Source of the DNA: Naegleria gruberi
Taxonomy: Eukaryota
Length of the DNA stretch: 64,000 nt
Direction: 5' to 3' (one strand)
Assembly: GCA_000004985.1 (NCBI GenBank)
Contig: GG738928.1
In this document: in pieces, positions 4,001-54,560 of the stretch
Position numbering within the stretch: the stretch's first letter is position 1
Layout of the letters: every line of letters starts with the position of its first letter
Notes under the pieces: model-generated
The model's database searches: none
Told to the model about the DNA's origin: nothing
What the model saw: the letters and a program-made list of their open reading frames with translations, nothing else
Program-made: the position numbers and the translations under genes

Positions 4001-6305
4001 NNNNNNNNNNNNNNNNNNNNNNNNNNNNNNNNNNNNNNNNNNNNNNNNNNNNNNNNNNNNNNNNNNNNNNNNNNNNNNNNNNNNNNNNNNNNNNNNNNNN
4101 NNNNNNNNNNNNNNNNNNNNNNNNNNNNNNNNNNNNNNNNNNNNNNNNNNNNNNNNNNNNNNNNNNNNNNNNNNNNNNNNNNNNNNNNNNNNNNNNNNNN
4201 NNNNNNNNNNNNNNNNNNNNNNNNNNNNNNNNNNNNNNNNNNNNNNNNNNNNNNNNNNNNNNNNNNNNNNNNNNNNNNNNNNNNNNNNNNNNNNNNNNNN
4301 NNNNNNNNNNNNNNNNNNNNNNNNNNNNNNNNNNNNNNNNNNNNNNNNNNNNNNNNNNNNNNNNNNNNNNNNNNNNNNNNNNNNNNNNNNNNNNNNNNNN
4401 NNNNNNNNNNNNNNNNNNNNNNNNNNNNNNNNNNNNNNNNNNNNNNNNNNNNNNNNNNNNNNNNNNNNNNNNNNNNNNNNNNNNNNNNNNNNNNNNNNNN
4501 NNNNNNNNNNNNNNNNNNNNNNNNNNNNNNNNNNNNNNNNNNNNNNNNNNNNNNNNNNNNNNNNNNNNNNNNNNNNNNNNNNNNNNNNNNNNNNNNNNNN
4601 NNNNNNNNNNNNNNNNNNNNNNNNNNNNNNNNNNNNNNNNNNNNNNNNNNNNNNNNNNNNNNNNNNNNNNNNNNNNNNNNNNNNNNNNNNNNNNNNNNNN
4701 NNNNNNNNNNNNNNNNNNNNNNNNNNNNNNNNNNNNNNNNNNNNNNNNNNNNNNNNNNNNNNNNNNNNNNNNNNNNNNNNNNNNNNNNNNNNNNNNNNNN
4801 NNNNNNNNNNNNNNNNNNNNNNNNNNNNNNNNNNNNNNNNNNNNNNNNNNNNNNNNNNNNNNNNNNNNNNNNNNNNNNNNNNNNNNNNNNNNNNNNNNNN
4901 NNNNNNNNNNNNNNNNNNNNNNNNNNNNNNNNNNNNNNNNNNNNNNNNNNNNNNNNNNNNNNNNNNNNNNNNNNNNNNNNNNNNNNNNNNNNNNNNNNNN
5001 NNNNNNNNNNNNNNNNNNNNNNNNNNNNNNNNNNNNNNNNNNNNNNNNNNNNNNNNNNNNNNNNNNNNNNNNNNNNNNNNNNNNNNNNNNNNNNNNNNNN
5101 NNNNNNNNNNNNNNNNNNNNNNNNNNNNNNNNNNNNNNNNNNNNNNNNNNNNNNNNNNNNNNNNNNNNNNNNNNNNNNNNNNNNNNNNNNNNNNNNNNNN
5201 NNNNNNNNNNNNNNNNNNNNNNNNNNNNNNNNNNNNNNNNNNNNNNNNNNNNNNNNNNNNNNNNNNNNNNNNNNNNNNNNNNNNNNNNNNNNNNNNNNNN
5301 NNNNNNNNNNNNNNNNNNNNNNNNNNNNNNNNNNNNNNNNNNNNNNNNNNNNNNNNNNNNNNNNNNNNNNNNNNNNNNNNNNNNNNNNNNNNNNNNNNNN
5401 NNNNNNNNNNNNNNNNNNNNNNNNNNNNNNNNNNNNNNNNNNNNNNNNNNNNNNNNNNNNNNNNNNNNNNNNNNNNNNNNNNNNNNNNNNNNNNNNNNNN
5501 NNNNNNNNNNNNNNNNNNNNNNNNNNNNNNNNNNNNNNNNNNNNNNNNNNNNNNNNNNNNNNNNNNNNNNNNNNNNNNNNNNNNNNNNNNNNNNNNNNNN
5601 NNNNNNNNNNNNNNNNNNNNNNNNNNNNNNNNNNNNNNNNNNNNNNNNNNNNNNNNNNNNNNNNNNNNNNNNNNNNNNNNNNNNNNNNNNNNNNNNNNNN
5701 NNNNNNNNNNNNNNNNNNNNNNNNNNNNNNNNNNNNNNNNNNNNNNNNNNNNNNNNNNNNNNNNNNNNNNNNNNNNNNNNNNNNNNNNNNNNNNNNNNNN
5801 NNNNNNNNNNNNNNNNNNNNNNNNNNNNNNNNNNNNNNNNNNNNNNNNNNNNNNNNNNNNNNNNNNNNNNNNNNNNNNNNNNNNNNNNNNNNNNNNNNNN
5901 NNNNNNNNNNNNNNNNNNNNNNNNNNNNNNNNNNNNNNNNNNNNNNNNNNNNNNNNNNNNNNNNNNNNNNNNNNNNNNNNNNNNNNNNNNNNNNNNNNNN
6001 NNNNNNNNNNNNNNNNNNNNNNNNNNNNNNNNNNNNNNNNNNNNNNNNNNNNNNNNNNNNNNNNNNNNNNNNNNNNNNNNNNNNNNNNNNNNNNNNNNNN
6101 NNNNNNNNNNNNNNNNNNNNNNNNNNNNNNNNNNNNNNNNNNNNNNNNNNNNNNNNNNNNNNNNNNNNNNNNNNNNNNNNNNNNNNNNNNNNNNNNNNNN
6201 NNNNNNNNNNNNNNNNNNNNNNNNNNNNNNNNNNNNNNNNNNNNNNNNNNNNNNNNNNNNNNNNNNNNNNNNNNNNNNNNNNNNNNNNNNNNNNNNNNNN
6301 NNNNN
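1054..6305. other. Unresolved N-run (5252 N); assembly gap or masked sequence
   Basis: All bases are N. The ORFs 997..6336, 1037..6343 and 1046..6514 consist mostly of X and are artefacts apart from their real flanks. Confidence 0.99.
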
Positions 6306-7695: not shown

Positions 7696-10600
7696 NNNNN
7701 NNNNNNNNNNNNNNNNNNNNNNNNNNNNNNNNNNNNNNNNNNNNNNNNNNNNNNNNNNNNNNNNNNNNNNNNNNNNNNNNNNNNNNNNNNNNNNNNNNNN
7801 NNNNNNNNNNNNNNNNNNNNNNNNNNNNNNNNNNNNNNNNNNNNNNNNNNNNNNNNNNNNNNNNNNNNNNNNNNNNNNNNNNNNNNNNNNNNNNNNNNNN
7901 NNNNNNNNNNNNNNNNNNNNNNNNNNNNNNNNNNNNNNNNNNNNNNNNNNNNNNNNNNNNNNNNNNNNNNNNNNNNNNNNNNNNNNNNNNNNNNNNNNNN
8001 NNNNNNNNNNNNNNNNNNNNNNNNNNNNNNNNNNNNNNNNNNNNNNNNNNNNNNNNNNNNNNNNNNNNNNNNNNNNNNNNNNNNNNNNNNNNNNNNNNNN
8101 NNNNNNNNNNNNNNNNNNNNNNNNNNNNNNNNNNNNNNNNNNNNNNNNNNNNNNNNNNNNNNNNNNNNNNNNNNNNNNNNNNNNNNNNNNNNNNNNNNNN
8201 NNNNNNNNNNNNNNNNNNNNNNNNNNNNNNNNNNNNNNNNNNNNNNNNNNNNNNNNNNNNNNNNNNNNNNNNNNNNNNNNNNNNNNNNNNNNNNNNNNNN
8301 NNNNNNNNNNNNNNNNNNNNNNNNNNNNNNNNNNNNNNNNNNNNNNNNNNNNNNNNNNNNNNNNNNNNNNNNNNNNNNNNNNNNNNNNNNNNNNNNNNNN
8401 NNNNNNNNNNNNNNNNNNNNNNNNNNNNNNNNNNNNNNNNNNNNNNNNNNNNNNNNNNNNNNNNNNNNNNNNNNNNNNNNNNNNNNNNNNNNNNNNNNNN
8501 NNNNNNNNNNNNNNNNNNNNNNNNNNNNNNNNNNNNNNNNNNNNNNNNNNNNNNNNNNNNNNNNNNNNNNNNNNNNNNNNNNNNNNNNNNNNNNNNNNNN
8601 NNNNNNNNNNNNNNNNNNNNNNNNNNNNNNNNNNNNNNNNNNNNNNNNNNNNNNNNNNNNNNNNNNNNNNNNNNNNNNNNNNNNNNNNNNNNNNNNNNNN
8701 NNNNNNNNNNNNNNNNNNNNNNNNNNNNNNNNNNNNNNNNNNNNNNNNNNNNNNNNNNNNNNNNNNNNNNNNNNNNNNNNNNNNNNNNNNNNNNNNNNNN
8801 NNNNNNNNNNNNNNNNNNNNNNNNNNNNNNNNNNNNNNNNNNNNNNNNNNNNNNNNNNNNNNNNNNNNNNNNNNNNNNNNNNNNNNNNNNNNNNNNNNNN
8901 NNNNNNNNNNNNNNNNNNNNNNNNNNNNNNNNNNNNNNNNNNNNNNNNNNNNNNNNNNNNNNNNNNNNNNNNNNNNNNNNNNNNNNNNNNNNNNNNNNNN
9001 NNNNNNNNNNNNNNNNNNNNNNNNNNNNNNNNNNNNNNNNNNNNNNNNNNNNNNNNNNNNNNNNNNNNNNNNNNNNNNNNNNNNNNNNNNNNNNNNNNNN
9101 NNNNNNNNNNNNNNNNNNNNNNNNNNNNNNNNNNNNNNNNNNNNNNNNNNNNNNNNNNNNNNNNNNNNNNNNNNNNNNNNNNNNNNNNNNNNNNNNNNNN
9201 NNNNNNNNNNNNNNNNNNNNNNNNNNNNNNNNNNNNNNNNNNNNNNNNNNNNNNNNNNNNNNNNNNNNNNNNNNNNNNNNNNNNNNNNNNNNNNNNNNNN
9301 NNNNNNNNNNNNNNNNNNNNNNNNNNNNNNNNNNNNNNNNNNNNNNNNNNNNNNNNNNNNNNNNNNNNNNNNNNNNNNNNNNNNNNNNNNNNNNNNNNNN
9401 NNNNNNNNNNNNNNNNNNNNNNNNNNNNNNNNNNNNNNNNNNNNNNNNNNNNNNNNNNNNNNNNNNNNNNNNNNNNNNNNNNNNNNNNNNNNNNNNNNNN
9501 NNNNNNNNNNNNNNNNNNNNNNNNNNNNNNNNNNNNNNNNNNNNNNNNNNNNNNNNNNNNNNNNNNNNNNNNNNNNNNNNNNNNNNNNNNNNNNNNNNNN
9601 NNNNNNNNNNNNNNNNNNNNNNNNNNNNNNNNNNNNNNNNNNNNNNNNNNNNNNNNNNNNNNNNNNNNNNNNNNNNNNNNNNNNNNNNNNNNNNNNNNNN
9701 NNNNNNNNNNNNNNNNNNNNNNNNNNNNNNNNNNNNNNNNNNNNNNNNNNNNNNNNNNNNNNNNNNNNNNNNNNNNNNNNNNNNNNNNNNNNNNNNNNNN
9801 NNNNNNNNNNNNNNNNNNNNNNNNNNNNNNNNNNNNNNNNNNNNNNNNNNNNNNNNNNNNNNNNNNNNNNNNNNNNNNNNNNNNNNNNNNNNNNNNNNNN
9901 NNNNNNNNNNNNNNNNNNNNNNNNNNNNNNNNNNNNNNNNNNNNNNNNNNNNNNNNNNNNNNNNNNNNNNNNNNNNNNNNNNNNNNNNNNNNNNNNNNNN
10001 NNNNNNNNNNNNNNNNNNNNNNNNNNNNNNNNNNNNNNNNNNNNNNNNNNNNNNNNNNNNNNNNNNNNNNNNNNNNNNNNNNNNNNNNNNNNNNNNNNNN
10101 NNNNNNNNNNNNNNNNNNNNNNNNNNNNNNNNNNNNNNNNNNNNNNNNNNNNNNNNNNNNNNNNNNNNNNNNNNNNNNNNNNNNNNNNNNNNNNNNNNNN
10201 NNNNNNNNNNNNNNNNNNNNNNNNNNNNNNNNNNNNNNNNNNNNNNNNNNNNNNNNNNNNNNNNNNNNNNNNNNNNNNNNNNNNNNNNNNNNNNNNNNNN
10301 NNNNNNNNNNNNNNNNNNNNNNNNNNNNNNNNNNNNNNNNNNNNNNNNNNNNNNNNNNNNNNNNNNNNNNNNNNNNNNNNNNNNNNNNNNNNNNNNNNNN
10401 NNNNNNNNNNNNNNNNNNNNNNNNNNNNNNNNNNNNNNNNNNNNNNNNNNNNNNNNNNNNNNNNNNNNNNNNNNNNNNNNNNNNNNNNNNNNNNNNNNNN
10501 NNNNNNNNNNNNNNNNNNNNNNNNNNNNNNNNNNNNNNNNNNNNNNNNNNNNNNNNNNNNNNNNNNNNNNNNNNNNNNNNNNNNNNNNNNNNNNNNNNNN

Positions 10601-13076
10601 NNNNNNNNNNNNNNNNNNNNNNNNNNNNNNNNNNNNNNNNNNNNNNNNNNNNNNNNNNNNNNNNNNNNNNNNNNNNNNNNNNNNNNNNNNNNNNNNNNNN
10701 NNNNNNNNNNNNNNNNNNNNNNNNNNNNNNNNNNNNNNNNNNNNNNNNNNNNNNNNNNNNNNNNNNNNNNNNNNNNNNNNNNNNNNNNNNNNNNNNNNNN
10801 NNNNNNNNNNNNNNNNNNNNNNNNNNNNNNNNNNNNNNNNNNNNNNNNNNNNNNNNNNNNNNNNNNNNNNNNNNNNNNNNNNNNNNNNNNNNNNNNNNNN
10901 NNNNNNNNNNNNNNNNNNNNNNNNNNNNNNNNNNNNNNNNNNNNNNNNNNNNNNNNNNNNNNNNNNNNNNNNNNNNNNNNNNNNNNNNNNNNNNNNNNNN
11001 NNNNNNNNNNNNNNNNNNNNNNNNNNNNNNNNNNNNNNNNNNNNNNNNNNNNNNNNNNNNNNNNNNNNNNNNNNNNNNNNNNNNNNNNNNNNNNNNNNNN
11101 NNNNNNNNNNNNNNNNNNNNNNNNNNNNNNNNNNNNNNNNNNNNNNNNNNNNNNNNNNNNNNNNNNNNNNNNNNNNNNNNNNNNNNNNNNNNNNNNNNNN
11201 NNNNNNNNNNNNNNNNNNNNNNNNNNNNNNNNNNNNNNNNNNNNNNNNNNNNNNNNNNNNNNNNNNNNNNNNNNNNNNNNNNNNNNNNNNNNNNNNNNNN
11301 NNNNNNNNNNNNNNNNNNNNNNNNNNNNNNNNNNNNNNNNNNNNNNNNNNNNNNNNNNNNNNNNNNNNNNNNNNNNNNNNNNNNNNNNNNNNNNNNNNNN
11401 NNNNNNNNNNNNNNNNNNNNNNNNNNNNNNNNNNNNNNNNNNNNNNNNNNNNNNNNNNNNNNNNNNNNNNNNNNNNNNNNNNNNNNNNNNNNNNNNNNNN
11501 NNNNNNNNNNNNNNNNNNNNNNNNNNNNNNNNNNNNNNNNNNNNNNNNNNNNNNNNNNNNNNNNNNNNNNNNNNNNNNNNNNNNNNNNNNNNNNNNNNNN
11601 NNNNNNNNNNNNNNNNNNNNNNNNNNNNNNNNNNNNNNNNNNNNNNNNNNNNNNNNNNNNNNNNNNNNNNNNNNNNNNNNNNNNNNNNNNNNNNNNNNNN
11701 NNNNNNNNNNNNNNNNNNNNNNNNNNNNNNNNNNNNNNNNNNNNNNNNNNNNNNNNNNNNNNNNNNNNNNNNNNNNNNNNNNNNNNNNNNNNNNNNNNNN
11801 NNNNNNNNNNNNNNNNNNNNNNNNNNNNNNNNNNNNNNNNNNNNNNNNNNNNNNNNNNNNNNNNNNNNNNNNNNNNNNNNNNNNNNNNNNNNNNNNNNNN
11901 NNNNNNNNNNNNNNNNNNNNNNNNNNNNNNNNNNNNNNNNNNNNNNNNNNNNNNNNNNNNNNNNNNNNNNNNNNNNNNNNNNNNNNNNNNNNNNNNNNNN
12001 NNNNNNNNNNNNNNNNNNNNNNNNNNNNNNNNNNNNNNNNNNNNNNNNNNNNNNNNNNNNNNNNNNNNNNNNNNNNNNNNNNNNNNNNNNNNNNNNNNNN
12101 NNNNNNNNNNNNNNNNNNNNNNNNNNNNNNNNNNNNNNNNNNNNNNNNNNNNNNNNNNNNNNNNNNNNNNNNNNNNNNNNNNNNNNNNNNNNNNNNNNNN
12201 NNNNNNNNNNNNNNNNNNNNNNNNNNNNNNNNNNNNNNNNNNNNNNNNNNNNNNNNNNNNNNNNNNNNNNNNNNNNNNNNNNNNNNNNNNNNNNNNNNNN
12301 NNNNNNNNNNNNNNNNNNNNNNNNNNNNNNNNNNNNNNNNNNNNNNNNNNNNNNNNNNNNNNNNNNNNNNNNNNNNNNNNNNNNNNNNNNNNNNNNNNNN
12401 NNNNNNNNNNNNNNNNNNNNNNNNNNNNNNNNNNNNNNNNNNNNNNNNNNNNNNNNNNNNNNNNNNNNNNNNNNNNNNNNNNNNNNNNNNNNNNNNNNNN
12501 NNNNNNNNNNNNNNNNNNNNNNNNNNNNNNNNNNNNNNNNNNNNNNNNNNNNNNNNNNNNNNNNNNNNNNNNNNNNNNNNNNNNNNNNNNNNNNNNNNNN
12601 NNNNNNNNNNNNNNNNNNNNNNNNNNNNNNNNNNNNNNNNNNNNNNNNNNNNNNNNNNNNNNNNNNNNNNNNNNNNNNNNNNNNNNNNNNNNNNNNNNNN
12701 NNNNNNNNNNNNNNNNNNNNNNNNNNNNNNNNNNNNNNNNNNNNNNNNNNNNNNNNNNNNNNNNNNNNNNNNNNNNNNNNNNNNNNNNNNNNNNNNNNNN
12801 NNNNNNNNNNNNNNNNNNNNNNNNNNNNNNNNNNNNNNNNNNNNNNNNNNNNNNNNNNNNNNNNNNNNNNNNNNNNNNNNNNNNNNNNNNNNNNNNNNNN
12901 NNNNNNNNNNNNNNNNNNNNNNNNNNNNNNNNNNNNNNNNNNNNNNNNNNNNNNNNNNNNNNNNNNNNNNNNNNNNNNNNNNNNNNNNNNNNNNNNNNNN
13001 NNNNNNNNNNNNNNNNNNNNNNNNNNNNNNNNNNNNNNNNNNNNNNNNNNNNNNNNNNNNNNNNNNNNNNNNNNNN
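7696..13076. other. Unresolved N-run (5381 N)
   Basis: All bases are N. The ORFs 6558..13160, 7632..13094, 7652..13090 and 7657..13239 are X-filled artefacts except for the real segment 6558..7695. Confidence 0.99.
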
Positions 13077-13873: not shown

Positions 13874-13923
13874 NNNNNNNNNNNNNNNNNNNNNNNNNNN
13901 NNNNNNNNNNNNNNNNNNNNNNN
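13874..13923. other. Short N-run (50 N) at the edge of a repeat copy
   Basis: All bases are N. A partial copy of repeat C starts immediately after it. Confidence 0.99.
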
Positions 13924-14235
13924 TGTCAACACTTAATATATCTTAGTGAACACTCCATCTCAATGAAAGTACATCCAATAATCCTGTAACTTTACAAATT
14001 ACGTTTAATCACACTATTATACATCTGGTATCAATTTTATAGTGTTAGAATTGAATTCAATATGATAATAATAACAATCTTTCAAAATGTCACATTTCAA
14101 TATATAGAATATACTCCATCTCAGTCAATTTACAATATATCATACAAGTATCAAGTATGGATATACTCCCCTAGATGAGGAGAACAATCTGAGAAAGTTT
14201 CATGTTCATGGCTCTGTATCTTCAAGTCAACTAAG
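13924..14235. repeat. Dispersed repeat family C, copy 0 (includes the last roughly 25 bp of family B)
   Basis: Aligns with 16915..17190 and 21590..21850. Shared blocks include tagtgaacactccatctcagtgaaagt..ataataataacaatctttcaaaatgtcacatttcaa..ctccatctcagtca. Confidence 0.7.
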
Positions 14236-15467
14236 GAACATATTAGGTAATCAATTAGGAAGAATCTTAATTCCAAAATTAAATTTTACAATCATATCAA
14301 AACCATTGAATAATGAATTATTTATACAAGAATAATATATTCAATTGTTATATTCATGTCAGTAATCAGTGAAGGTGATACTTCTTCAACCTTAGTATAC
14401 ATATCTCAATATGTAGACAGTCAATTCCACTGAAACTTGAAATATTACCTATCTAGATGATATAATGATGACTCTTCATAGTAAGATGCATGTGAAATTG
14501 AGTGTGGACCGTTTTCATCTTGTTATATTTATAGAGATGGTATCCAACAGAGTCAGTTCACAATATTAAATATTGAAACTCATTCTATGTGACATGTTTG
14601 ATGTACGGAACGGTTTTTTATTGAATGTAATCAGTTTGAAATAATCTGATGAAATTGACACTGTCTAGTCACCATTACATGACAAATAGACCATAGTTTA
14701 CATTCCCTCTCAGTCATTTCAACGATTTATTGATTAATTCCACCACCATTATGTTTCTCGTACATTGTAGTACAGTTTATATTTCAAGAGTGATGTCTGT
14801 GTAGATTTTTATAATCGTAATACCATTCAATACCAATAAAACTCAATAGAAGTGTTAATTCTTCTCATTTTCAAATAGAGTATTCAATATAGAACACATC
14901 TAGATAGTTTCCAGATCATAAAAGTCAAGCTACTATATATGGTCTTTGATTAAATTTAAAAATAGACTGCCGTTAATTACTGGAATATTAATTCAAAGCT
15001 TGATGATAAAGCTGTTGATTGAAATCAAACCGATTATTGAATATTGATCATTGAATTGGTGAATAATCACTCTTGATAATGTTACTTATTCAGATTGCAT
15101 GCAAATCAACCTGATTCAATCTACAAAGGTTGGTAGTTGCACCACTACGTGGCGAAACTACCCATCCACGATCAATCAACATAAGAATCACTTCCATTCA
15201 ACTCAATTTGACCGTTATAATCAATAAATCAATGAAATGTTCCTTTATTAGCAATACCTATTCAATCTAACGAGTAGATTCACGTCCCAAACATTTGACT
15301 TCTAAAAGTCCATAATTCACAAGTTAGTACTGACCTGACCTTTAAATATCTATCAATACAAGAAATGAAACCATCAAATTTACATCATTAATAGATGATA
15401 AGAAATATAATCAATGATATGAATCTTCACTAAGTAATCTCTTAAATAACCCAAATAAATCAACTCT

Positions 15468-15492
15468 GAATCCTAACCAAACCCAACCCACT
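15468..15492. repeat. Interstitial telomere-like seed (cctaaccaaacccaaccca) immediately 5' of repeat A copy 2
   Basis: A short degenerate run of CCCAAA-type units is seen directly, abutting the start of the second family-A copy. Confidence 0.55.
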
Positions 15493-15990
15493 TTGTAAAT
15501 AATGTCAGATTAAAATTTCTAAAATGAAACCATAGGAAGAATGATAATTTCAAAATCCTTTAATGAGATTATATAGTATATATCATCATTAACAACATTT
15601 ATAATCACTTTCATATAAAATTTCAAAAGTTCAAGTCTGTAGATATAAAAGTATAGAGGGAAAAGGGAAGTTGTGAGGTACAAGAGGTCAACTATAACTT
15701 TTGAGTTTCTCATCAAAACATATTGAATCCTAATATGAAAATGTTCCATTTGATGAGTATACGTCGAATATCAAATTTATTTTAACTTTCATATTTACAG
15801 ATTTCTTCCCTCAACCATCATACGGTCAACTATGATGAACAGGATGAAATCTTGAAAAAGGACCACCTATTGAAACTTTACCAAAATGATGTACATGATC
15901 TATAATGATATAGAATTCAATTTCATGTCCTAATAATCAGAAATGGTATCATGGGAAGGTAAATGTTGATATTTTTTGGTTGACTTTAGA
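15493..15990. repeat. Subtelomeric repeat family A, copy 2 (internal)
   Basis: About 500 bp aligns to 527..1053 at roughly 85-90% identity. It is followed at 16035..16255 by a degenerate partial third copy sharing gaaaatgctccattcgatgagta..atcaagtttattttaactttt..gaaactttaccatcatg. Confidence 0.75.
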
Positions 15991-16034
15991 GAAAGACAAG
16001 TCAGACCAACTCTATCAAATACATCACTTCAACC

Positions 16035-16255
16035 AACAATATATACATGAAAATGCTCCATTCGATGAGTAGAGATAGAATATCAAGTTTATTTTAACTT
16101 TTATATTCACGATTTCAACTCTAACATGCCATCTGATAAACTATGGACACGGATGAATTTCTGGAAAATGACCACTTTATGAAACTTTACCATCATGTTA
16201 TACATCTCTACTAATGTATATGGTTCAATTTTCAGACAGTTTGGTGAACATTCTA
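16035..16255. repeat. Degenerate partial copy of repeat family A
   Basis: Shares blocks with family A (ccatt[ct]gatgagta, atatcaa[ag]tttatttt[ga]actt, gaaactttacca.catg.tatacat.tcta.taatg) at lower identity. Confidence 0.5.
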
Positions 16256-16470
16256 TCTTTCAATAAGGCAAAGGGTGAAATTTCAAGGTTGTCTTTGGAA
16301 GATCAGGAGGAAATCTTGAATATAGAGAACCAAATCCTCAATCTACAAAATACATATCAATCGATTGGAAATCAATAGTACATCTCGAAAATATCATTTA
16401 TTTTATGTTTTGAAATCTCTCCTTGACCTCTTTTAGTCAATTAAGACAATTAAGGATGAGACTATAGGAA

Positions 16471-17190
16471 AAGTTACCAATCTCAAAATAAATGATAATA
16501 TCGTGTTCCACATCTCAAATAAAGTGGACTTTCTTCAAATTATATATTTTCATTTCAATAAATGCATCCGTTAGATAGTACATGGTGATATTTCAATGGA
16601 ATGGATGGAAATCTGAAAGGTACAGAAACAACTCCATTTTCACTTAAATCAATATCATTACATGTAGACGCTCTAATTAGAATATGATATCAATTTCATG
16701 AATATTGGTTCAGTAGATGTCGACATGTCAACTCTATCAATTTACTATAGACATTTGACATGATATCATAGATTAAGCTCCAACTCACTCATTTTACGTA
16801 CAATCAGTCTAGAAATGATGATAAATAATATACACATCTATAAAATACATCTACAATAGTTTAAAAACGTTTCAAACTACTTTCATAAAATTAATCAGTA
16901 AATGTTCAATGTCAATCCTAGGTATACCATAGTGAACACTTCATCTCAGTGAAGGTACACCCAATCATCCTATAACTTTGCCAGATACGTTTAATCATAC
17001 TATTGTACATATTGTATTAATTTTAGATATTCTGAATAGAAATTGACTTGATAATAATAACAATCTGTCAAAAAAGTAACTTTTCAATATATAGAATACG
17101 CTCCAGCTCATTCAGTTTGTATAATATCAAACAAGTATGAAACATGAACACATTCCTATTGGTGATAGGTACAATCTGAGAAAGATTCAT
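16471..17190. repeat. Composite dispersed repeat B+C, copy 1
   Basis: Aligns along its whole length with 21141..21850. Shared text runs from aagttaccaatctcaaaataaatgataatatcgtgttc.acatctcaaataaagtggacttt through ctccatctcagtca. Confidence 0.75.
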
Positions 17191-17214
17191 TGTGAAGAAG
17201 TTGGGTCTTGTCAT

Positions 17215-19700
17215 CATACAAGAATTGAATCAAGTATCCATTTACTTGGATTGAACTTTACATAAGCACACCGGGTTTGAGCCACACCAAGCTCATTTGA
17301 GAAAGTGTAATTTAATTTTACAACGGGTTTGAGCCACACCATGTTCATTTGAAACAATTTCAAGTCGTTTTTACATCGGGTTTGACGACAACCACTGTTT
17401 AAAGATAACATTTGTGAAAAATCGACTGATCTCAATCATTATTAAGAATTTGAGTATACTCCAATGGAATGTTACCATCTACATACAGTTTAGAACATTT
17501 TCCATCCCCTTGTAAAAATTCCTTAATAATTTTGAAATATTCAAAGTTCAGTAAGAATGCAAAAATTTTAATTTGTTGTATAGTATAATACAGTATCATC
17601 AAAAAGTTGGATAACTCATTCTTTTGAAAAGAAGCAACGGGTTTGAGCCACTCCACGTTCATTTGAAACAATTTCAAAAAGTTTTTACATCGGGTTGGAT
17701 GACAACCATTGTTTTAAAGATTACAGTTGTGAAAAATCGACTGATCTCAATCATTTCTGAGAATTTAAGTATACTGTAAAGGACTGGTACCATTTCTATC
17801 GAGTTTTGAACATTTTCCATCTACTTGAAAAAATTCCTTACTAATTGTGAAGTAAGAAAAGTTCAGTAAGAATGTAAAAATTTTAATTTGTTGTATAGTA
17901 TAATACAGTCTTGTCAAAAGGTTGGATACGTCACTCTTTCGAAAAGAAGCAACGGGTTTGAGCCACTCCACGTTCATTTGAAACAATTTCAAACAGTTTT
18001 TACATCGGGTTGGATAACAACCATTGTTTTAAAGATTACAGTTGTGAAAAAATGGCAAATCTCAATCATTTTTGAGAATTTAACTATACTGTAAAAGACT
18101 GTCACCATTTCCATCGAGTTTTGAACATTTTCCAATCACTTGTAAAAAATTCTTAATAATTGTGAACTACTCAAAGTTCACTAAGATAGAAATATTTCAT
18201 AAACTTATAGTTCCTTATTGTAAGGAATTGTCAAAAGGTCTGAAATCCACTTTCATGAATATAATCAACAGGTTTGAGCCAATCCATGTTCATTTGAAAC
18301 AATTTCAAACAGTTTTTACATCGGGTTGGATGACAACCACTGTTTTAAAGATTACAGTTGTGAAAAAATGGAAAATCTCAATCATTATGGATATTTTGAG
18401 TATACTCCAATGGAATGTTACTATCTACATACAGTTTAGAACATTTTCCATCCCCTTGTAAAAATTCCTTAATAATTTTGAAATATTCAAAGTTCAGTAA
18501 GATTGCAAACAATTTACTTTGTTGAATAGTGTATTACAGCCTCATCACAATCGATCAGGAACTTTTTTGAAAAGAAGCAACGGGTTTGAGCCACTCCAAG
18601 CTCATTTGAAACAGTTTCAAAAAGTTTTTACATCGGGTTGGATGACAACCACTGTTTTAAAGATTACAGTTGTGAAAAAATGGCAAATCTCAATCATTTT
18701 TGAGAATTTAAGTATACTGTAAAGGACTGGTACCATTTCCATCGAGTTTTGAACATTTTCCATCTACTTGAAAAAATTCCTTACTAATTGTGAAATATTC
18801 AAAGTTCAGTAAGAAAGTTTAATTGTGAAAATGTTGCCAGAATACCAGTTAAAATTGTATTCCGATTGAATTTTACGTAAGCACACCGGGTTTGAGCCAC
18901 ACCAAGCTCATTTAAGAAAGTTTAATTTAATTTTACAACGGGTTTGAGCCAGTCCATGGAGTTGTTAGTAAAGAGTGGTTGGATGAAATCACTGTTTCAA
19001 AGATAACAGTTGTGAAAAATCGACCAATCTCAATCATTATTAAGAATTTGAGTATAGTTCAATGGAATTATACCATCTATAGCCAGTTTTGAACATTTTC
19101 CATCGACTTGTAAAAATTCCTTAATAATTAGGATGAAGGAAAAGTTCACTAAGAAAAGACAATGTTAATTTGTTGAACAGTATTGTACAATCCCCACCTA
19201 AAGGTTGAATAAGTCACTCTTTTGAGAAGAAGCAACGGGTTTGAGCAACTCCAAGCTCATTTGAAACATTTAATAGTAGTTGTTACATCGGGTTGGATGA
19301 CAACCACTGTTTTAAAGATTACAGTTGTGAAAAATAGACTGATCTCAATCATTATTGAGAATTTAAGTACACTTTAAAGGACTGCCACCATTTCCATCGA
19401 TTTTGGAACATTTTCCATCTACTTGAAACAATNNNNNNNNNNNNNNNNNNNNNNNNNNNNNNNNNNNNNNNNNNNNNNNNNNCATTTGAAACAATTTCAA
19501 ACAGTTTTAATCGGGTTGGATGACAACCATTGTTTAAAAGATAACAGTTGTGAAAAAATGGCAAATCTCAATCATTTCTTAGAATTTAACTATGCTGTAA
19601 CGGAATGTTACCATCTACAGCAATTTTAGAACACTTTCCATCTACTTGAAACAATTCCTTAATAATTATGATGCAAGCAAAGTTCACTAAGAAAAGAATA
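17215..19700. repeat. Tandem satellite array, about 8 units with period roughly 300-330 bp
   Basis: A conserved core (caacgggtttgagccactccacgttcatttgaaacaatttcaaacagtttttacatcgggttggatgacaaccactgttttaaagattacagttgtgaaaaaatggcaaatctcaatcatt..gagaatttaagtatactgtaaaggactg..ccatttccatcgagttttgaacattttccatc) recurs at about 17636, 17951, 18272, 18587, 18937, 19238 and 19483, with shortened variants at 17272 and 18887. A 50-N run lies inside the array. The repeated small ORFs here (MKLFQMNVEWLKPVASF...) derive from the repeat. Confidence 0.8.
19433..19482. other. Short N-run (50 N) inside the satellite array
   Basis: All bases are N. Confidence 0.99.
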
Positions 19701-21126
19701 TTTCAAAAACTTATTGTTGGTGGAATGATTCTGCACAACTATAGAGCATCTCCTTGTTCCGATATTGTACATGTGGATATTAGTAAAAAAACCACCACTA
19801 TAACAAAATTTTTTGTTTTGGTCCAACAGATGATGAGAATTGGCACTTGTAAATGTTGAAAATAATGTTATACCAATTCTACATCATACACAACTTGGCT
19901 ACTTATCCATCATTTACAAAATGATACAATTGAAATAAATATCATATCTCAATTTAAATATAGAGATGGTCAATTAAGGTACCTCAATAGGGAAGTACCC
20001 TAAGGACAATGAGATTCAATACCAAATTGATACAATATGTTATTAACATCATATAATGAGGTTTCTATCAATTTCAAATCATTTGGACATCATTCAGTAT
20101 TCATGCCATTTAACCATGTCACTAACTACTCATGATAATATGACAAGTCAATATCAAGATGTTCAACAAGATAGAATATCATACAAATACTCTTATAATT
20201 GATGTTCATAACGTATTTGAGTGATACAAATCAATATCTATATAATTGGACTATCTGTCAAGCTACTGTCCTAATTGACAAAAAGGTAACATTCTTACAT
20301 GTCATGAATGGTAATAATCAACACCAATTCAATACTACCATGTTATAATCATCAAATACTCTCATCGAATCAATTTTGGAATGATTTCAATATCATCTTA
20401 GATAGTTATCATATGACAAAGTTACTACCTTAGTGAACTACCCACGTCATTAATAAATGTCTAAAACCAAATCTTTCAATTATATATTCATATATATATC
20501 AATAATAGTGTATAATATCAGTTTTATAATATATAATCAATTATTGGTATGATGGCAATATTTCAATTAAACATTGACATTGCAACATTTCGCAAATTGG
20601 AAATATAGGTCATAACATCATGATATTCAACATTTAGTGATAAAGTAAAACGATGACATATATTATCCAATAAAATATTCAGATCCCTTTAAAAGTGTTA
20701 ACCACATCAAAAGCTCCCCATGCAAGTTGACTTCCAAAAGTCTCAAAATGGATCCAATCATGATTTTTTCAGTGATATATGATTACCATTCATATTCACT
20801 ACTGTATTTATCAGTATTATTGAATTTTATTGTGTTTCCATATTATAGGTCAACATCTTGGTCAATTAATCATTTACTAGTAGAAAAGCTACAAGGAAAT
20901 GTTTCTCTCTAGTCACCACCCAATAACCTCCTCTTCATGAAGAAGAGTTCCAAATCTTGAGATGAGAACCTTGTTCACTTTCAATATGTTGAATTAATGC
21001 AACCACTTTCCCATTCTTCTATCAAGTGTTGTCACAATAAGAAGCTTCTGATTCGTATCAACAATAAACAATTTCAAAATCTTAAATCAATAAGAGATTG
21101 GAGTAAGAGGTATCCGAGGTTCGTAG

Positions 21127-21140
21127 AACCAAACCCAAAG
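21127..21140. repeat. Interstitial telomere-like seed (aaccaaacccaaag) immediately 5' of repeat B copy 2
   Basis: Seen directly at the junction with copy 2 of repeat B. Copy 1 of B (16471) lacks the seed. Confidence 0.45.
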
Positions 21141-21850
21141 TTACCAATCTCAAAATAAATGATAATATCGTGTTCTACATCTCAAATAAAGTGGACTTTC
21201 ATCAAATTATATATTTTCATTTCAAGAAATGCATCCAGTAGATAGTACATGGTGATTTGTCAGGAGAATGGATGGAAATCTGAAGGGTCCAGAAACAACT
21301 CCAATTTAACTGAAATTGATATCATGGTATGTAGACACTCTAATTAGTATGTGGTATCAATTTCATGAATATTGGTTCAGTAGATGTCGAGATGTCAACA
21401 CTATCAATTTACTATAGACATTTGACATAATATCATAGATTATACTCCAACTCACTCATTTTACATATAATAAGTCTAGAATTGATACCACATAGTCTAT
21501 ATATCAATTAATATACATCTACAATAGTTAAGAAACATTTCAAACTATTTTCATAAAATTAATCAGTAAATGTTCAATATCAACATTATATATATCCTAG
21601 TGAACACTCCATCTCAGTGAAAGTTATTCCAATCATTCTGTAACTTTACCCAATACGTTTAATCACATTATTATACATCTGGTATCAATTGCATACAGTT
21701 AGAATTGAATTCAATATGATAATAATAACAATCTTTCAAAATGTCACATTTCAAAAAAAAGATTACACTCCATCTCAGTCAGTTTACAAATATCATACTA
21801 GTATCAAATATGAATACACTCCTCTTGATGAGGATCTGAGAAGTTTCAAT
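21141..21850. repeat. Composite dispersed repeat B+C, copy 2
   Basis: Aligns with 16471..17190 at roughly 85% identity, with indels. Confidence 0.75.
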
Positions 21851-23173
21851 TGATGGCTCAGTATCTTCAAGTCAACTAAGTAACCTAAGAATAGACAAGT
21901 CAATTAAGTACATCAAGTCAACAATTGAAAATTGAAATATAGTATATTTATTACAAATTAATAGGACTGTTCTAAATAACCATAGTGTTTAAATCAATGT
22001 TTGTAAAGTTGTCAATACATCATGTCACAGATCATACTCTTTCTCAATGAATACTTGACTAAATCAATTGAAATTGACATCTAGTTGTTTATATGTAGTA
22101 TTGTATATGTGGTATCAATATCTTTTAAAATTGTCAAGTATTAAGGAAGATCTAAAAAATAAGGTGGTAATAATGAATAAGTTAGTAAAATCACCTTGAA
22201 TCGATCACTCGTCACTTAATTGACACTCCAACATACAACCACTGAACCAACAGTGCTAAAGCTTTAATTTCTAGAAATGATTCGTATGAATAACCAAGGG
22301 GTTGTATGACTATTAAGGGAAAATTGTCGGTTTCTATTAAGAACAACAATTAACAACAAATAACAACAAGAATCGTATCATTATATGATAATAACAATAA
22401 TTTATTAAACGATATGGAAGGGAGAAGTTGCTCCCTCACCAAATGATGAGGGGAAGATTCAACTTGATGATCAAGAGATGGTACCTCCACCAATCTACTT
22501 AAATTATAGAATCATTGAAGATTATCCTGATGATCTTGTTGATAAATAGATTCATACATCGGAATAGTTTTGGAAGCAGAGTTATTTAGCGTTGTATTTT
22601 GATAATCGTAATATTTTAAAGGGTTAAAAATGGAGTTGATTAATGCGATTATCAAAATAATGGCTTCAGATCCATGGCTATTAGCATTGCCAACAAGCAA
22701 ATAACTTGTGGAGTGAGAAACATTACCACTTCCACCTTCTAAATAATATTAATAAATATTATTTACTTGTTCCTTAATGATCTTAATGATATCGGAATAA
22801 GTGCGCACCGCAATTAAAGGTAGTTTCACACTTGTTCAACACAGCTATTAAGCAATAGAAAATTAACAAGTTTAACACCAATTCAAATACAAAATACTCA
22901 ACAATTACTGAATTAAATGCAAATATCCCAACGTCATTTTGTAGAGAATTAAGTTGAACCTATGCGATTTTTCACCTTTTGCCAAATGGTTGCGTATCTA
23001 CCAAGCCCCCCCCAAGAGAACAAAAAACACAGAAATATTGAGGTAAAACGAGTTGATTATCTCCATTATTTGATAGCAACCAATATTAAAATTATATATC
23101 AGCATGTAGCCGTGAACATTTCCTATCTAATGATATATATTGATGTATATGAAGTCTTATAAATAATGATGTT

Positions 23174-24541: not shown

Positions 24542-26393
24542 ATGTCAAACCGATCTCAACCTGTTGATTCATCAACCCAAGAATCGGAATCACACAAAAA
24601 ACACAAACCAAACTCTCTCACTATTCATCACCTAACACAAGATGAAATGAGTATTGTTTTAAACTTCCTTCACAAGGGTGAAATTTTAATTCTGGCCACT
24701 CTGTGTAAACAACTTTACTCCACTATTTACAATCTAGTGGAGAGTATCATTCATCCGAGAGAATTTAATGTTGAAAATTGGAGTTCCAGATCGTTGGAAA
24801 GCATGCTCTCCCACTACTCTTGGTTAGATGTTGGGAAGAAGACGATCAGGAAAGAAATTGAAGAAATGGCTAATAGAGGAGGAATTGAACGATTGGCTAA
24901 AGTTTTTTACGCAGAATTTGAAGATGCTGATGATGTTTTCAGCATTCCATTGAGAAAAGAGGATAAATATTCAAAAATCTCACAACAATGGATCAAACTT
25001 AGTAACAAATATCAAGATACAAGAAATACTGTTGAAGAGACTGTGGTCGATCAAGTACCTGTTGGATTTCAAGTTAGGAAACTTTGTTTAGTCTCCAACA
25101 ATCCCTTCAAAACTTTGAACTATTTGCAAAATATTGAAGAATTACTCTTACATCGTCGTCATGTGGGTAATGTGGAACCTCTCAGTGATGGATTCAGAGC
25201 AATCATGTTAAACAAGTTGAGAATACTTCGTATTGATTTGTCTGATTGTGAGGATTATATGAAAGCTTACATTTCTGGTTTATTGCAATTGAGCCCAAAC
25301 TTGGAAAGACTTGAAAGTACGAGTTGCTTATTACAGTGGGATGACGAATTAATTGTATTTATATCAGAAATGTGCAAAAAATTGAAAAAAATCAAATTGA
25401 AGGGAAATTCAAATATATCTGATGATTCACTTTATAAGGTTTTTAAAAATCTTCCTCACTTGACTCATTTTGAAATTGAAAATAATGCAGTATTTACTGG
25501 AAAGTTTTTGAGTAAGATTGGAGAGTTTCCACAGTTGAAATTTTTCAAAGTGGACAGAAGAGGTGATGATTTGGTTGAAAGTTGTGCAGACCTACATTTA
25601 GGGGGTGGTATTCTTCCTAATTTAGAATTTTTGGAACTGGGTATTGAGTATGATAGTATCTATGAGAATGAACATTTATTTATTGAAAGTTTAAAGTTGG
25701 TAACACCCAATCTTAAATGTGCTGGTTCTATGATTAATATCTATGAAGGTTATGTCTGCAGGTATGCTCTAAAAACTCTCGAATTATTCGTGAATACCCT
25801 TGAAAGTTTTACACTTAGTACTATTAGCGCATTATGTAATCCCATTATTGCTGCCAAGTTTTTCAAGTTGTTACCAAATGTCAAAACTTTTAAGGTAGAA
25901 GGTGTCTTGACGCTCGATGTTTTAAAAGAATTGGAAATTCATTCTAAAGTAGAAAAATTGACATTGGAAACAACAGTATTGAGCCTTGAGTATTTACTTA
26001 AACTCTCAAAAGTGTTTCCAAATCTTAAAATATTGAAATTCAAAGAGAATGTTTCATCATCCTATGATACACAAACAGCAGATGTACTGAATGTTTTGAA
26101 AGTTATAAATGATGGACATTTCCAGCATTTGGAAATGATAAGCATTTATGGAATGCAATTTCTTGGAAATGATAAGCATTTATGGAATGCAATTTCTCGA
26201 TGAATGGTCAGAAATAAGAAAAGAATTTGTCATGGCAAGACCTTTTCTATTGCTTCTAACAACATTGGGAGATGAAGAAGGGAGCTTTGAATTTTCAAAT
26301 GACCAACAAAAAGATTTTGAGTATAAGTGGCTAGTGTTGGACAAGAATTTATCCAAACTTGACATGTTTCCAAAAAATGATTTTCTAATGTAA
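24542..26393 (+). CDS. F-box/leucine-rich-repeat protein. The frame is broken by a perfect 34-bp tandem duplication at 26129..26196. Removing one copy restores a single ORF of about 605 codons ending at 26393.
   Basis: The N-terminus carries an F-box-like motif (LTQDEMSIVLNFLHKGEILILATLCKQLYSTIYN). The body carries LRR-like repeats (LxxLxLxxC, LKKIKLKGNSNISDDSL, LPHLTHFEIENN). ORF 24542..26203 ends ...LEMISIYGMQFLGNDKHLWNAISR*. ORF 26148..26393 restarts in the other frame with LEMISIYGMQFLDEWSEIRKEF... The unit ttggaaatgataagcatttatggaatgcaatttc is present twice, back to back. Confidence 0.6.
26129..26196 (+). repeat. Perfect 2 x 34-bp tandem duplication inside a coding region; causes a +1 frameshift
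   Basis: Counting bases shows copy 1 at 26129..26162 and copy 2 at 26163..26196, both reading ttggaaatgataagcatttatggaatgcaatttc. Confidence 0.9.
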
Positions 26394-29117: not shown

Positions 29118-30306
29118 ATGAAAATCTATTCGAAAGCTTTCAAAAAAAATACATCAACAACCTTTTTATACTACATGACAGCGAATTTAATATCATCATC
29201 AACAACTAGCCTACCAACATACAACCCATCACCAACAATTAACGAGGATCCAATACAGCAGCAACAGTCGAATCAATTCTATACGAAAGGCCTTTCCAAT
29301 GATGAGGAGACCAACGAAACTAAACAGACAGAGTTTGACATTTTACAAGCCTTGTCTAAATATAATATCATTGGAGGATTGTGGGTGTTCACATGGTTTT
29401 CATTGAATATAACAATAGCTTTCGGAAACAAAATCGTATATTGGCAAGGGTTTAGTTTTCCAACAATTTTATCACTTTTTCACATGTTGGCTTCGTGGTT
29501 ATTAGCATTCATTTCATTGAGATATCAAAATCGTAATGATGCTTCTGCAGAAGTGGAAATTAAAGCTGAGGCTAAAAAACACATGTGGCTCTATATTGTA
29601 GTGTTTATTTTGAATATCGTTTATGGAAATATTGGAATTTTTAGAACATCATTACACATGTCACAGGTTAGTAGTTAGATTTAATGTATTTTGAGGTTAA
29701 TTGAATGGAAAATAGATTGTGAGAAGTACTACTCCTCTTTTTGTCATGGTTTTGAGCTATTTGATTGTTGGAACGACCACCAGCATTCATAAATTGGCAA
29801 TTGTTTCACTTGTAATTGCAGGAGTGATCATGTCAATTGTAAATAATTTGGAAATTAACATGACTGATGTCATTATTCTCATGATTGGAAATTTATTTGC
29901 TGCTTTAAAGACAGTTCTCACAAACTTGTCGTTGAAAAGTCACAAAATATCACCACTTGTTTTAATGAACTATGTTGCTCCATATGCTTCATTAGGAATG
30001 CTTATGATAACGATTGTGAATGGAGAATTGGTTAGATTTATGAGTGAATATCACAAAGTGACATTGTATGGAGTTTTGGCTGTGATATTGACCTCTATAA
30101 TGTCATTCTTTTTAAACACGACTAATTTCATTGCTAACAAGATGACAAGTCCGCTTACCATGAGTTTGTCAGCAAATCTCAAACAAGTATTGGTTGTAGT
30201 TGTGAGTTTATGTTTCCTTCATCAAGGAGGAGTTACTTCAGTGAATATTATTGGTATTTCAATGACACTGTCAGGAATGCTTATTTATTCAGTGCTTTCT
30301 CTATAA
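29118..30306 (+). CDS. Nucleotide-sugar/triose-phosphate transporter family membrane protein (SLC35/TPT-like, DMT superfamily). Two exons: 29118..29666 and 29716..30306. The intron at 29667..29715 is 49 nt (GTTAGT...AAAATAG).
   Basis: There are about 9-10 hydrophobic TM segments. The two ORFs 29118..29678 and 29719..30306 join in frame when the intron is removed (...FRTSLHMSQ|IVRSTTPLFVMVLSYLIVG...). The overall pattern is typical of TPT-family transporters. Confidence 0.65.
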
Positions 30307-34214: not shown

Positions 34215-34286
34215 TAGCAAATCTAGGTTTCGATCCTAGGACCTATGGGTTATGAGCCCATCGCGCTTCCACTGCGCCAATTTGCT
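34215..34286 (-). tRNA. Initiator tRNA-Met (anticodon CAT)
   Basis: The reverse complement reads AGCAAAT-U-GGCGC-AGUGGAA-GCGC-G-AUGGG-CUCAUAA-CCCAU-AGGUC-CUAGG-AUCGAAA-CCUAG-AUUUGCU-A. A1:U72, three G:C pairs closing the anticodon stem and the AUCGAAA T-loop are all eukaryotic initiator hallmarks. Confidence 0.85.
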
Positions 34287-35973: not shown

Positions 35974-36885
35974 TTATCTTCTTATTGGTTTTGTTGGTTC
36001 TGGTTTCTTCTTCTCTTTTAACGTTGGTGATTTAGCTGTTGTTGCAGAAATAACAGTTGCCATTGTTGACATGTTTTGCTCGGTATTGGAAAGGCAAGTC
36101 TTGATAATATCATCATAATAAATTGCCTTGGTTGTTCTATTACAAAACGTATTTACAATTTCATCTACTTCTTCTTTAGTAACCAATTCCTTATCTCCCA
36201 TCGTTAATAAGACATTTCTCAAAGTTTCTGGATCAATATCTCCCTTAAAATCTGTATCAAAAGTTTCAAAAGCATCCAAAATATCAAAGTGAGTATTCTG
36301 ATCTGGTAAATCATTCAATGCCATAATTTTCAAAAATTCATCCAATGTAACTTGTTTCCTCTCTATTACCTCATCACAATTTGGAAGAACACTCAAATAT
36401 TGATTCAATTCACTCTCTTTTGGATTCTTCAACAGACCTCGCATCAGAGTCAATAGATCCGACAATAAAACGTGTCCCTTCAACAATGTAAAATCATACT
36501 GAGGACCTGGTGGAGGTTCCTCTACTTGTGCAGCAGCTCCCTTCTTATCAGCAACTTTCTTTACCTTTGGATCCTCCTTCTTTACTGCTCCCTTAGCTTT
36601 TGGATCCTTGTCTGCCACAACAGGTGTTGGTTTTGATGGTTTAATAGTTTTCTTTTGTTCATATAATTTAAATCCGTCTGTATATTCCTTAATCAATTCC
36701 GGAGGAAGATCAATTTCAATGACTGGTGGTGGTTGAATCATTGAGACATCTCCCATACTACTGGCAATCATGGATTCCTCCACTTGCTCCGTAACGTAAC
36801 CATCTTGTTGTTGTTCATCCATCAGGAGAGAATTATTCTGAAGGCCTGCTGTTGTGCTCCCGATTGTTGAGGATGTGTCGGTCAT
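35974..36885 (-). CDS. Myosin essential light chain-like (calmodulin-like EF-hand) protein with a long N-terminal acidic and then Lys/Ala/Pro-rich extension; paralog 1
   Basis: The C-terminal half aligns to the myosin ELC pattern: DLLTLMRGLLKNPKESEL, VTLDEFLKIM, HFDILDAFETFDTDFKGDIDPETLRNVLLTMGDKELVTKEEVDEIV, KAIYYDDIIKTCL. The N-terminus has a conserved IEIDLPPELIKEYTDGFKLYEQKKTIKP block followed by a PKAKGAVKKEDPKVKK region. Confidence 0.6.
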   Translation of the reverse strand: MTDTSSTIGSTTAGLQNNSLLMDEQQQDGYVTEQVEESMIASSMGDVSMIQPPPVIEIDLPPELIKEYTDGFKLYEQKKTIKPSKPTPVVADKDPKAKGAVKKEDPKVKKVADKKGAAAQVEEPPPGPQYDFTLLKGHVLLSDLLTLMRGLLKNPKESELNQYLSVLPNCDEVIERKQVTLDEFLKIMALNDLPDQNTHFDILDAFETFDTDFKGDIDPETLRNVLLTMGDKELVTKEEVDEIVNTFCNRTTKAIYYDDIIKTCLSNTEQNMSTMATVISATTAKSPTLKEKKKPEPTKPIRR

Positions 36886-45550: not shown

Positions 45551-46537
45551 TTATTTGGTTGCCTTCTTCTTAGTTCCCTTTTTAGCAGTCTTTGGTGGAG
45601 GAGGATCGTGTACATTTGTGTTAGACAAACAGGTCTTTAAGAATTCATCATAGGCAATGCTCTTGTTTTCTGGATTGGTGAATGTAAGAAGAATTTCATC
45701 AATTTCTTCTTGTGTCATTAAATCCTTTTCTCCCATAGTTGCTAAAATGAATTTGAGTTTTTCAGGTTCAAATTCTCCCTTAAAATCATCGTCAAAAGTT
45801 TCAAAAGCATCCAAAATTTTAAAGTGATCGTCTTGATTAGGAATTGGTGCATTTTGCATAATTCTTAAAAATTCATCAAGATTAAGTTGACATCTATTAA
45901 CTACTTCCTCAGAATTTGGAAGTATGCTTAGGTAGAGAGGAAGATCTTTTTCCTTTGGATTCTTCATTAATGCTCTCATCAGTGTCAGTAAATCAGAAAT
46001 CAAAACGTGACCTTTTAAAATGGTAAATGTTGGTTGAGGAGGAGCTTGCACTGCTGGTTCAACTACAGTCTTATCATTCTTTCCTCCCTTTTTATCTGTT
46101 CCCTTCTTTGCAGGTGCACTCTTCTTTTTATCATCTCCCTTCTTTGCACCCTTCTTATCGTCTCCTTCAGCAGGTGGTTGTGCTTTACCTGGTTTAATCG
46201 TCTTTTTAGCTTCATATAATTTAAATGCATCAGTATATCTCTTGATAATATCAGGAGGAATATCTTCTGGTTTTAAAATCATTGAGGAGGATAATCCCTT
46301 TCCAGATAATGATGTTGCAGGTCTGCTAGAGTCCCTAGTCATGTTTGGATCGGCAAAGGATGAATCTAGATTCATTCCTGACATATTCCCAATACCTGAC
46401 ATGTTATTCAATCCCGATGCATTATTAATACCTGAAATATTCAAATTAGACCCTTCCTCCACAGCAGCCATCGATATCGAATCATTCAATCCATAATTCG
46501 GAGTTGGTGTTCTTGGTAATTCCTCAGCTGTTGCCAT
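45551..46537 (-). CDS. Myosin essential light chain-like EF-hand protein with a Lys-rich N-terminal extension; paralog 2
   Basis: Alignable with 35974..36885 along its whole length: PEDIPPDIIKRYTDAFKLYEAKKTIKP, TILKGHVLISDLLTLMRALMKNPKEKDL, HFKILDAFETFDDDFKGEFEPEKLKFILATMGEKDLMTQEEIDEIL. The lysine-rich middle reads GDDKKGAKKGDDKKKSAPAKKGTDKKGGKNDK. Confidence 0.6.
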   Translation of the reverse strand: MATAEELPRTPTPNYGLNDSISMAAVEEGSNLNISGINNASGLNNMSGIGNMSGMNLDSSFADPNMTRDSSRPATSLSGKGLSSSMILKPEDIPPDIIKRYTDAFKLYEAKKTIKPGKAQPPAEGDDKKGAKKGDDKKKSAPAKKGTDKKGGKNDKTVVEPAVQAPPQPTFTILKGHVLISDLLTLMRALMKNPKEKDLPLYLSILPNSEEVVNRCQLNLDEFLRIMQNAPIPNQDDHFKILDAFETFDDDFKGEFEPEKLKFILATMGEKDLMTQEEIDEILLTFTNPENKSIAYDEFLKTCLSNTNVHDPPPPKTAKKGTKKKATK

Positions 46538-48191: not shown

Positions 48192-48264
48192 GTACCCTTG
48201 GCTCAATTGGAAGAGCATCGGCCTACGGAGCCGGGGGTTGTGGGTTCGAGTCCCACAGGGTATA
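48192..48264 (+). tRNA. tRNA-Arg (anticodon ACG)
   Basis: Reads GUACCCU-U-G-GCUC-AAUUGGAA-GAGC-A-UCGGC-CUACGGA-GCCGG-GGGUU-GUGGG-UUCGAGU-CCCAC-AGGGUAU-A. The cloverleaf has a G1:U72 wobble and a 7-nt anticodon loop carrying ACG at positions 34-36. Confidence 0.8.
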
Positions 48265-54527: not shown

Positions 54528-54546
54528 TCGATTCCCACTGGTCCCC
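54528..54546 (+). repeat. 19-nt fragment identical to the 3' end (T-arm plus acceptor) of the tRNA-Pro gene 560 bp upstream
   Basis: tcgattcccactggtcccc matches 53951..53969 exactly. Confidence 0.6.
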
Positions 54547-54560
54547 TTCTATTTTAATTT

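Follow-up and report, generated by a model that had tools for sequence, protein, structure and literature searches.

Near one end of a draft scaffold of Naegleria gruberi, an open reading frame for a protein of the F-box/LRR type ends prematurely at a perfect 34-bp tandem duplication, while the coding sequence that would complete it continues past the stop in another frame. The locus thus raises the question whether the second copy is a mutation of the sequenced lineage or an error of the assembly, and what the gene encoded before its frame was lost. The window analysed here is a stretch of 64,000 nucleotides from contig GG738928.1 (assembly GCA_000004985.1), with a GC content of ~33%. A sequence-only reading of it had pointed to perfect adjacent 34-bp copies at 26129-26196, to two ORFs (24542..26203 and 26148..26393) that both read LEMISIYGMQF across the repeat, and to an otherwise continuous ORF of about 605 codons. 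Direct sequence comparison and TRF bear out the first of these; translation of the ORFs confirms the second, copy 1 giving this peptide in frame A and copy 2 in frame B; and the third holds on removal of one copy, with the comparison to homologs giving the ancestral state. The features of the break are the following.

24542..26203, + strand: truncated ORF as assembled, 553 aa, identical to the public model NAEGRDRAFT_54261.
26129..26162, + strand: copy 1 of the 34-bp unit; in the gene frame it encodes LEMISIYGMQF, including the family-invariant leucine L530 of the WPxL motif, in the last LRR strand.
26163..26196, + strand: copy 2 of the 34-bp unit, with the same sequence as copy 1; 34 being 3x11+1 nt, it shifts the frame, and a TGA follows at 26201..26203.
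26197..26393, + strand: stranded C-terminal coding segment, with 64 sense codons at 26199..26390 and a TAA stop at 26391..26393.

The two identical copies of the unit, TTGGAAATGATAAGCATTTATGGAATGCAATTTC, lie head-to-tail, and TRF describes 26129..26196 as a repeat of period 34 with 2.0 copies, 100% matches, no indels and a score of 138. Identity between the copies reaches one base further to the right (the T at 26197) and none to the left, so that the microhomology at the junction is 1 nt. The junction sequence found only in the two-copy state is GGAATGCAATTTCTTGGAAATGATAAG; the corresponding span of the one-copy state reads ...CCAGCATTTGGAAATGATAAGCATTTATGGAATGCAATTTCTCGATG... A perfect tandem repeat of 34 bp is expected by chance less than about 1e-11 times, by our own arithmetic from base composition, which excludes a chance origin.

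As assembled, the gene runs into 13 final residues, LGNDKHLWNAISR, that are out-of-frame junk from copy 2, and the ORF beginning at 26148 adds a separate product of 81 aa. Deletion of one 34-bp copy yields a single uninterrupted ORF of 1818 nt, with 605 codons and a stop. The stranded segment is read in the frame of the ORF at 26148, shifted by +1 from that of the assembled gene body, and encodes ...DEWSEIRKEFVMARPFLLLL...DFEYKWLVLDKN..., including R555 (26238..26240) and W585 (26328..26330). Its codon usage is that of the gene itself: under a model trained on 14 other ORFs of the window, the log-odds per codon are +0.208 for the tail and +0.217 for the gene body, and negative in both off-frames. 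At this composition, 64 codons would stay open by chance with a probability of about 0.01.

The public annotation carries the truncated form: NAEGRDRAFT_54261 (XP_002669307.1, EFC36563.1, UniProt D2W2S4), which lies on a scaffold of 160,583 bp, is the 553-aa protein. It has a single record in the protein collection and is the one member of its 90% cluster; exact look-ups found no record for either the repaired 605-aa protein or the 81-aa product, and word-indexed protein searches, with the repaired protein and with the family alignment, returned the gene's own record alone. A search for contigs of other assemblies that encode the gene or two of the genes near it found none. Metagenome scans gave 135 pattern matches by protein, of which 0 were confirmed, and 0 matches to an exact 26-mer of the repeat. 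The literature searched holds no mention of the gene's identifiers, and a tblastn search of the window with the repaired protein detected no nearby paralog. The two-copy state is thus known here from a single assembly record of the gene.

The family emerges from an exhaustive phmmer search against 1.84 billion cluster representatives: 257 proteins are recovered with E<=1e-3, of which 27 stay within E<=1e-10, and the best of these have the whole architecture in common. The members with names, identified by exact look-ups, are confined to Naegleria and Willaertia: FDP41_007169 and FDP41_008572 of N. fowleri (both named 'F-box domain-containing protein' in UniProt), NAEGRDRAFT_71924 of N. gruberi, and ABK040_013136 and ABK040_009749 of Willaertia magna; the remaining ones come from ENA, Logan and JGI environmental assemblies. 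Alignment of 18 homologs with the gene of the window (19 sequences; A1 in the following) shows a common layout, in which an N-terminal motif, LxxDE...LxFLxxGExLxLSxxCKxxY, is followed by a long LRR region and a C-terminal signature, WPxL ... RPxL ... FxxxWLxxD. Identity between the family members and the window's gene is only ~22-26%. Some homologs (P0010, P0083 and P0016 in A1, P0027 by inspection) carry an insert of ~130-150 aa that separates the N-terminal region from the LRRs, of the sequence ...WxxKxYxGV...GKGYYQ...FVQSTSHNRKLP..., which is absent from the window's gene and from most other members. The parts of the layout upstream of the break are located as follows in the window's gene.

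24629..24733, + strand: residues 30-64, HLTQDEMSIVLNFLHKGEILILATLCKQLYSTIYN, an F-box-like motif at the N-terminus that corresponds to LxxDExxxxLxFLxxGExLxLSxxCKxxY in the family alignment and matches the Pfam F-box at E=0.014, below threshold.
25100..26128, + strand: LRR solenoid region, approximately residues 187-529, with approximate boundaries; the part most conserved relative to the homologs and to FBXL17, FBXL2, COI1, TIR1 and SKP2.

The sequence-only reading had called this an F-box/LRR gene, a claim that holds at the level of the family. Taken alone, the protein stays below the Pfam thresholds for both domains (F-box PF00646 at 15.7 bits against a cutoff of 20.5, LRR_8 at E=0.013), and its C-terminal WPxL...RPxL...FxxxWL motif matches no Pfam family. 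Across the family, PF00646 is matched by 5/19 members (best E-value 6.5e-05) and LRR_At5g56370 (PF24758), which describes the LRRs of F-box proteins, by 9/19. Against solved structures the family profile finds FBXL17 (2e-17), FBXL2 (1e-14) and COI1 (2.5e-13), and also TIR1, FBXL5, MAX2 and SKP2; its positions 431-573 weakly match ANP32A, labelled as an LRRcap-domain protein in one PDB entry. The structure was modelled with AlphaFold (AF2) for a homolog from N. fowleri (P0003; mean pLDDT 76, pTM 0.77): N-terminal helices at residues 69-111 are followed by a solenoid of alternating strands and helices up to residue 590 and by three helices within residues 596-636, and the best PDB matches of this model are D3/MAX2, Dia2, SKP2, TIR1, COI1 and FBXL3. 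The profile, PF24758 and the model support an LRR solenoid C-terminal to the F-box-like motif in the family. Together with the Pfam matches, this justifies a family-level assignment of the gene to the F-box/LRR proteins of the FBXL type.

The homologs also decide how many copies of the unit the gene originally had. In A1, all sequences share R555 and also L530, which belongs to the WPxL motif within the duplicated unit, and at least 90% of them have W585; R555 and W585 lie downstream of the duplication and come into frame with the gene body only after one copy is removed. Scored against a family HMM built from the 18 homologs, with the window's gene left out, the repaired protein obtains 274.0 bits over positions 11-600 of 605, and the protein as assembled 254.2 bits, its match stopping at position 551. 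By themselves, the 64 codons that follow the duplication score 15.5 bits (positions 556-600), in the shifted frame only; in the other frames they give 0.2 bits or no hit. A full-length, co-linear match to the family that includes the C-terminal motif is thus obtained with the repaired one-copy sequence only. On the evidence of the conserved residues and of the HMM match in the shifted frame, the ancestral gene is one with a single copy of the 34-bp unit and a product of 605 aa. As its tail shows no decay at all, and a single copy is the ancestral state, the duplication event is either extremely recent or not real.

For the product, the duplication means the addition of 11 codons and 1 nt inside the last LRR strand and the replacement of the final 65 residues by the 13 junk residues and the premature TGA; the F-box-like motif and most LRRs are retained. 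Mapped on the model of the N. fowleri homolog, the break falls into strand 588-590, the last of the LRRs, which carries the WPxL motif, and takes away the downstream helices at 596-602, 616-622 and 626-636, so that a two-copy allele is predicted to encode a product without the final helices, which cap the solenoid or come after it. Solved FBXL-type receptors use their C-terminal helix or tail in binding the substrate; examples are SKP2, the tail of FBXL3 and the C-terminal helices of D3/MAX2 and FBXL17. By analogy with these, the truncated allele is most likely a null or a hypomorph, that is, a nascent pseudogene.

This would not apply if the frame were restored during expression. With the duplication real, a full-length protein could be made by a +1 ribosomal frameshift at CGA-UGA-A (26198..26204), with a net insertion of 11 residues: the frame A stop (TGA at 26201..26203) is followed by an A, and skipping T26201 leads exactly into the frame of the downstream ORF (GAA UGG UCA, E W S). 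Shifts of +1 at stop codons are known elsewhere, in bacterial RF2 and in antizyme. All 18 aligned homologs (18/18), however, are co-linear single polypeptides through this region and have no conserved recoding site; the 13 residues to be inserted are out-of-frame junk from an undiverged duplication; no stimulatory element was identified; and the arrangement shows no sign of selection, for which there has been no time. As the homologs are continuous and selection has had no time to act, rescue by a +1 frameshift is very unlikely.

A second way to an mRNA in frame, the splicing out of one copy or of a larger piece as an intron, has in its favour that short introns exist in this genome, the nearest example being that of a neighbouring gene.

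29118..30306, + strand: TPT/EamA-family transporter gene, in two ORFs split by a 49-nt intron at 29667..29715 (GTTAGT...AATAG).

Set against this genuine local intron, the intervals available at the duplication do not qualify. The 34-bp unit itself begins with TT and ends with TC, and a full enumeration of frame-restoring GT..AG intervals with lengths of 25-400 nt yields none below 163 nt; their donors are poor (for example GTTTCC) and lie no further than 26102, and every interval removes conserved LRR coding sequence. Intron rescue was rejected on these grounds, and the chance that it operates here is close to negligible. It is also very unlikely that the duplication is real and the locus still yields a functional protein, be it with a tail restored by the +1 frameshift or as a cap-less SCF adaptor with a dominant-negative effect or an altered specificity; if it did, the locus would catch a fast-evolving, subtelomeric receptor family in the act of diversifying via small tandem duplications.

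Whether the duplication is a real mutation or an artefact turns in part on where it lies. The window starts, at 1..402, with 67.5 tandem copies of CCAAAC (97% matches), the reverse complement of TTTGGG, which is the candidate telomeric repeat of N. gruberi (Fulneckova et al. 2013, PMC3622300). The window thus opens at the end of a chromosome, with the repeat C-rich as expected for this orientation, and the locus is subtelomeric. The gene lies ~24 kb from this end, including ~10.7 kb of estimated gaps; as these ~10.7 kb fall within the first 20 kb, the distance between gene and telomere is only an estimate. The gaps of this draft scaffold are four.

1054..6305: N-run of 5252.
7696..13076: N-run of 5381.
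13874..13923: N-run of 50.
19433..19482: N-run of 50.

Long ORFs are absent from 13924..23000. A subtelomeric 315-bp satellite, in ~5-8 copies of 60-92% identity, occupies 17307..19833 and is broken by the 50-N gap at 19433..19482. It is flanked by dispersed direct repeats ~4667 bp apart (16470..17121 and 21137..21789, also 13926..14135; 81-91% identity), which may represent a subtelomeric segmental repeat or a repeated element. The neighbouring genes are of ordinary kinds and encode, besides the TPT-family transporter, a GNT-I-like glycosyltransferase, an EF-hand protein, an FAD-linked oxidase and an NHL-repeat protein, and five dispersed tRNA genes lie within 25 kb of each other.

59096..61594, + strand: 832-aa protein with NHL repeats and an EGF-like domain (Teneurin NHL domain at E=3e-53; in the DNA, eight repeats with a periodicity of ~168 nt).
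34215..34286: tRNA gene, Met-CAT.
48192..48264: tRNA gene, Arg-ACG.
52755..52828: tRNA gene, Val-TAC.
53898..53969: tRNA gene, Pro-TGG.
58431..58504: tRNA gene, Thr-AGT.

A 28-nt copy of the 3' end of the tRNA-Pro gene, of 86% identity, is found at 54528..54555, 577 bp downstream. The genes at 35974..36885 and 45551..46537, both on the minus strand and separated by ~9.5 kb, resemble each other in stretches (70-74% nucleotide identity; repeat families D7 and D11) and look like a local paralogous pair; the first of them has weak EF-hand matches.

The disjunction drawn by the sequence-only reading, between a very recent inactivating mutation and an artefact of assembly or sequencing, is borne out by the evidence. 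We think that the duplication is probably genuine and that the sequenced NEG-M lineage acquired it very recently, by a small tandem-duplication mutation. Mutations of this class commonly occur spontaneously, and this one would have arisen by break repair or replication slippage with the minimal microhomology of 1 nt. It is also possible, if rather doubtful, that the gene is intact in the organism, with a single copy of the unit and a 605-aa product, and that assembly, consensus or cloning introduced the other copy. Under such an account this copy might, with some reserve, go back to the Sanger shotgun cloning, to the building of the consensus or to the merging of contigs, and the 553-aa model would be an annotation casualty. 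The perfect identity of the copies, the intact downstream frame and the preserved family-invariant residues are just what would be expected if the gene were really intact, and this zero divergence, open ORF and motif conservation, equally expected from an artefact, count to that extent against a real mutation. So does the setting, a gap-rich, draft-quality subtelomeric scaffold end with four N-runs within ~25 kb (5252, 5381, 50 and 50 N) and satellite repeats nearby; the 1-nt microhomology, too, is compatible with two ends that overlap by 34-35 bp and were abutted instead of merged.

Against an artefact stands the position of the site in the interior of a contig, ~6.6 kb from the nearest N-run (19433..19482), and the two 50-N gaps in the window have no duplicated flanks of a comparable kind beyond the satellite. 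An exact scan of the window for tandem duplications with periods of 8-300 finds, in its ~53 kb of resolved sequence and apart from the telomere repeat, no perfect duplication with a unit longer than 11 bp other than the 34-bp one, which argues against a recurrent assembly defect here. A clean, perfect duplication of 34 bp is moreover not typical of base-calling or consensus errors in Sanger data. Interior position, clean gap flanks and uniqueness in the window lower, without removing, the probability of an artefact. For a real mutation, it matters further that the strain is reported to be heterozygous, in a passage of PMC9928731 that cites Fritz-Laylin 2010; a masked defective allele is therefore plausible, and the duplication may sit on one homolog only. 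Loss of the gene would be tolerated, given at least one other family member in N. gruberi and a position near the telomere, and in a heterozygous strain a defective allele of such a subtelomeric gene could persist. The copy number can be addressed with existing data, as a nanopore re-assembly of N. gruberi (Flye) and public Illumina and RNA-seq data exist (PMC12695648).

Either way, this is a case of an ordinary frameshifting tandem duplication or of an assembly error, in a lineage-specific F-box/LRR gene, and real or not, it opens no larger question. What the analysis adds is the identity of the gene and its single-copy ancestral form of 605 aa; it defines the conserved motif that the C-terminus loses, excludes rescue by an intron and finds no recoding site conserved among the homologs. 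For curation, it follows that the 553-aa model NAEGRDRAFT_54261 is truncated by comparison with its family and deserves a flag that marks it as either a frameshifted allele or an error in the sequence, and comparative work should use the corrected 605-aa sequence. If the duplication is real, it offers a datable case, with zero divergence, of a gene inactivated by a small tandem duplication near a Naegleria telomere, and a minor data point on turnover in the F-box/LRR family and on mutation in a long-cultured amoeba strain.

Three known systems lend themselves to comparison. With the FBXL receptors of SCF ubiquitin ligases (FBXL17, FBXL2, SKP2, TIR1, COI1, D3/MAX2), the family has its architecture in common: a three-helix, F-box-like motif at the N-terminus, then an LRR solenoid and, C-terminally, a tail of helices; it differs from them in being lineage-restricted, in the position of the window's own protein below the Pfam cutoffs for F-box and LRR, and in a C-terminal motif that Pfam does not cover. 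False tandem duplications in draft assemblies resemble the present case in the perfect identity of their copies, in a gene that is broken but well conserved and in the gap-rich draft scaffold end; unlike them, the site here lies off any contig boundary or gap and has no other instance in the window. Small out-of-frame tandem duplications, as found in nascent pseudogenes, share with it a pair of identical copies in head-to-tail order, a unit whose length is no multiple of 3, minimal microhomology at the junction, a premature stop soon after it and a downstream ORF that is still open; in contrast to those, the duplication described here is a feature of an assembled sequence and only probably one of the organism.
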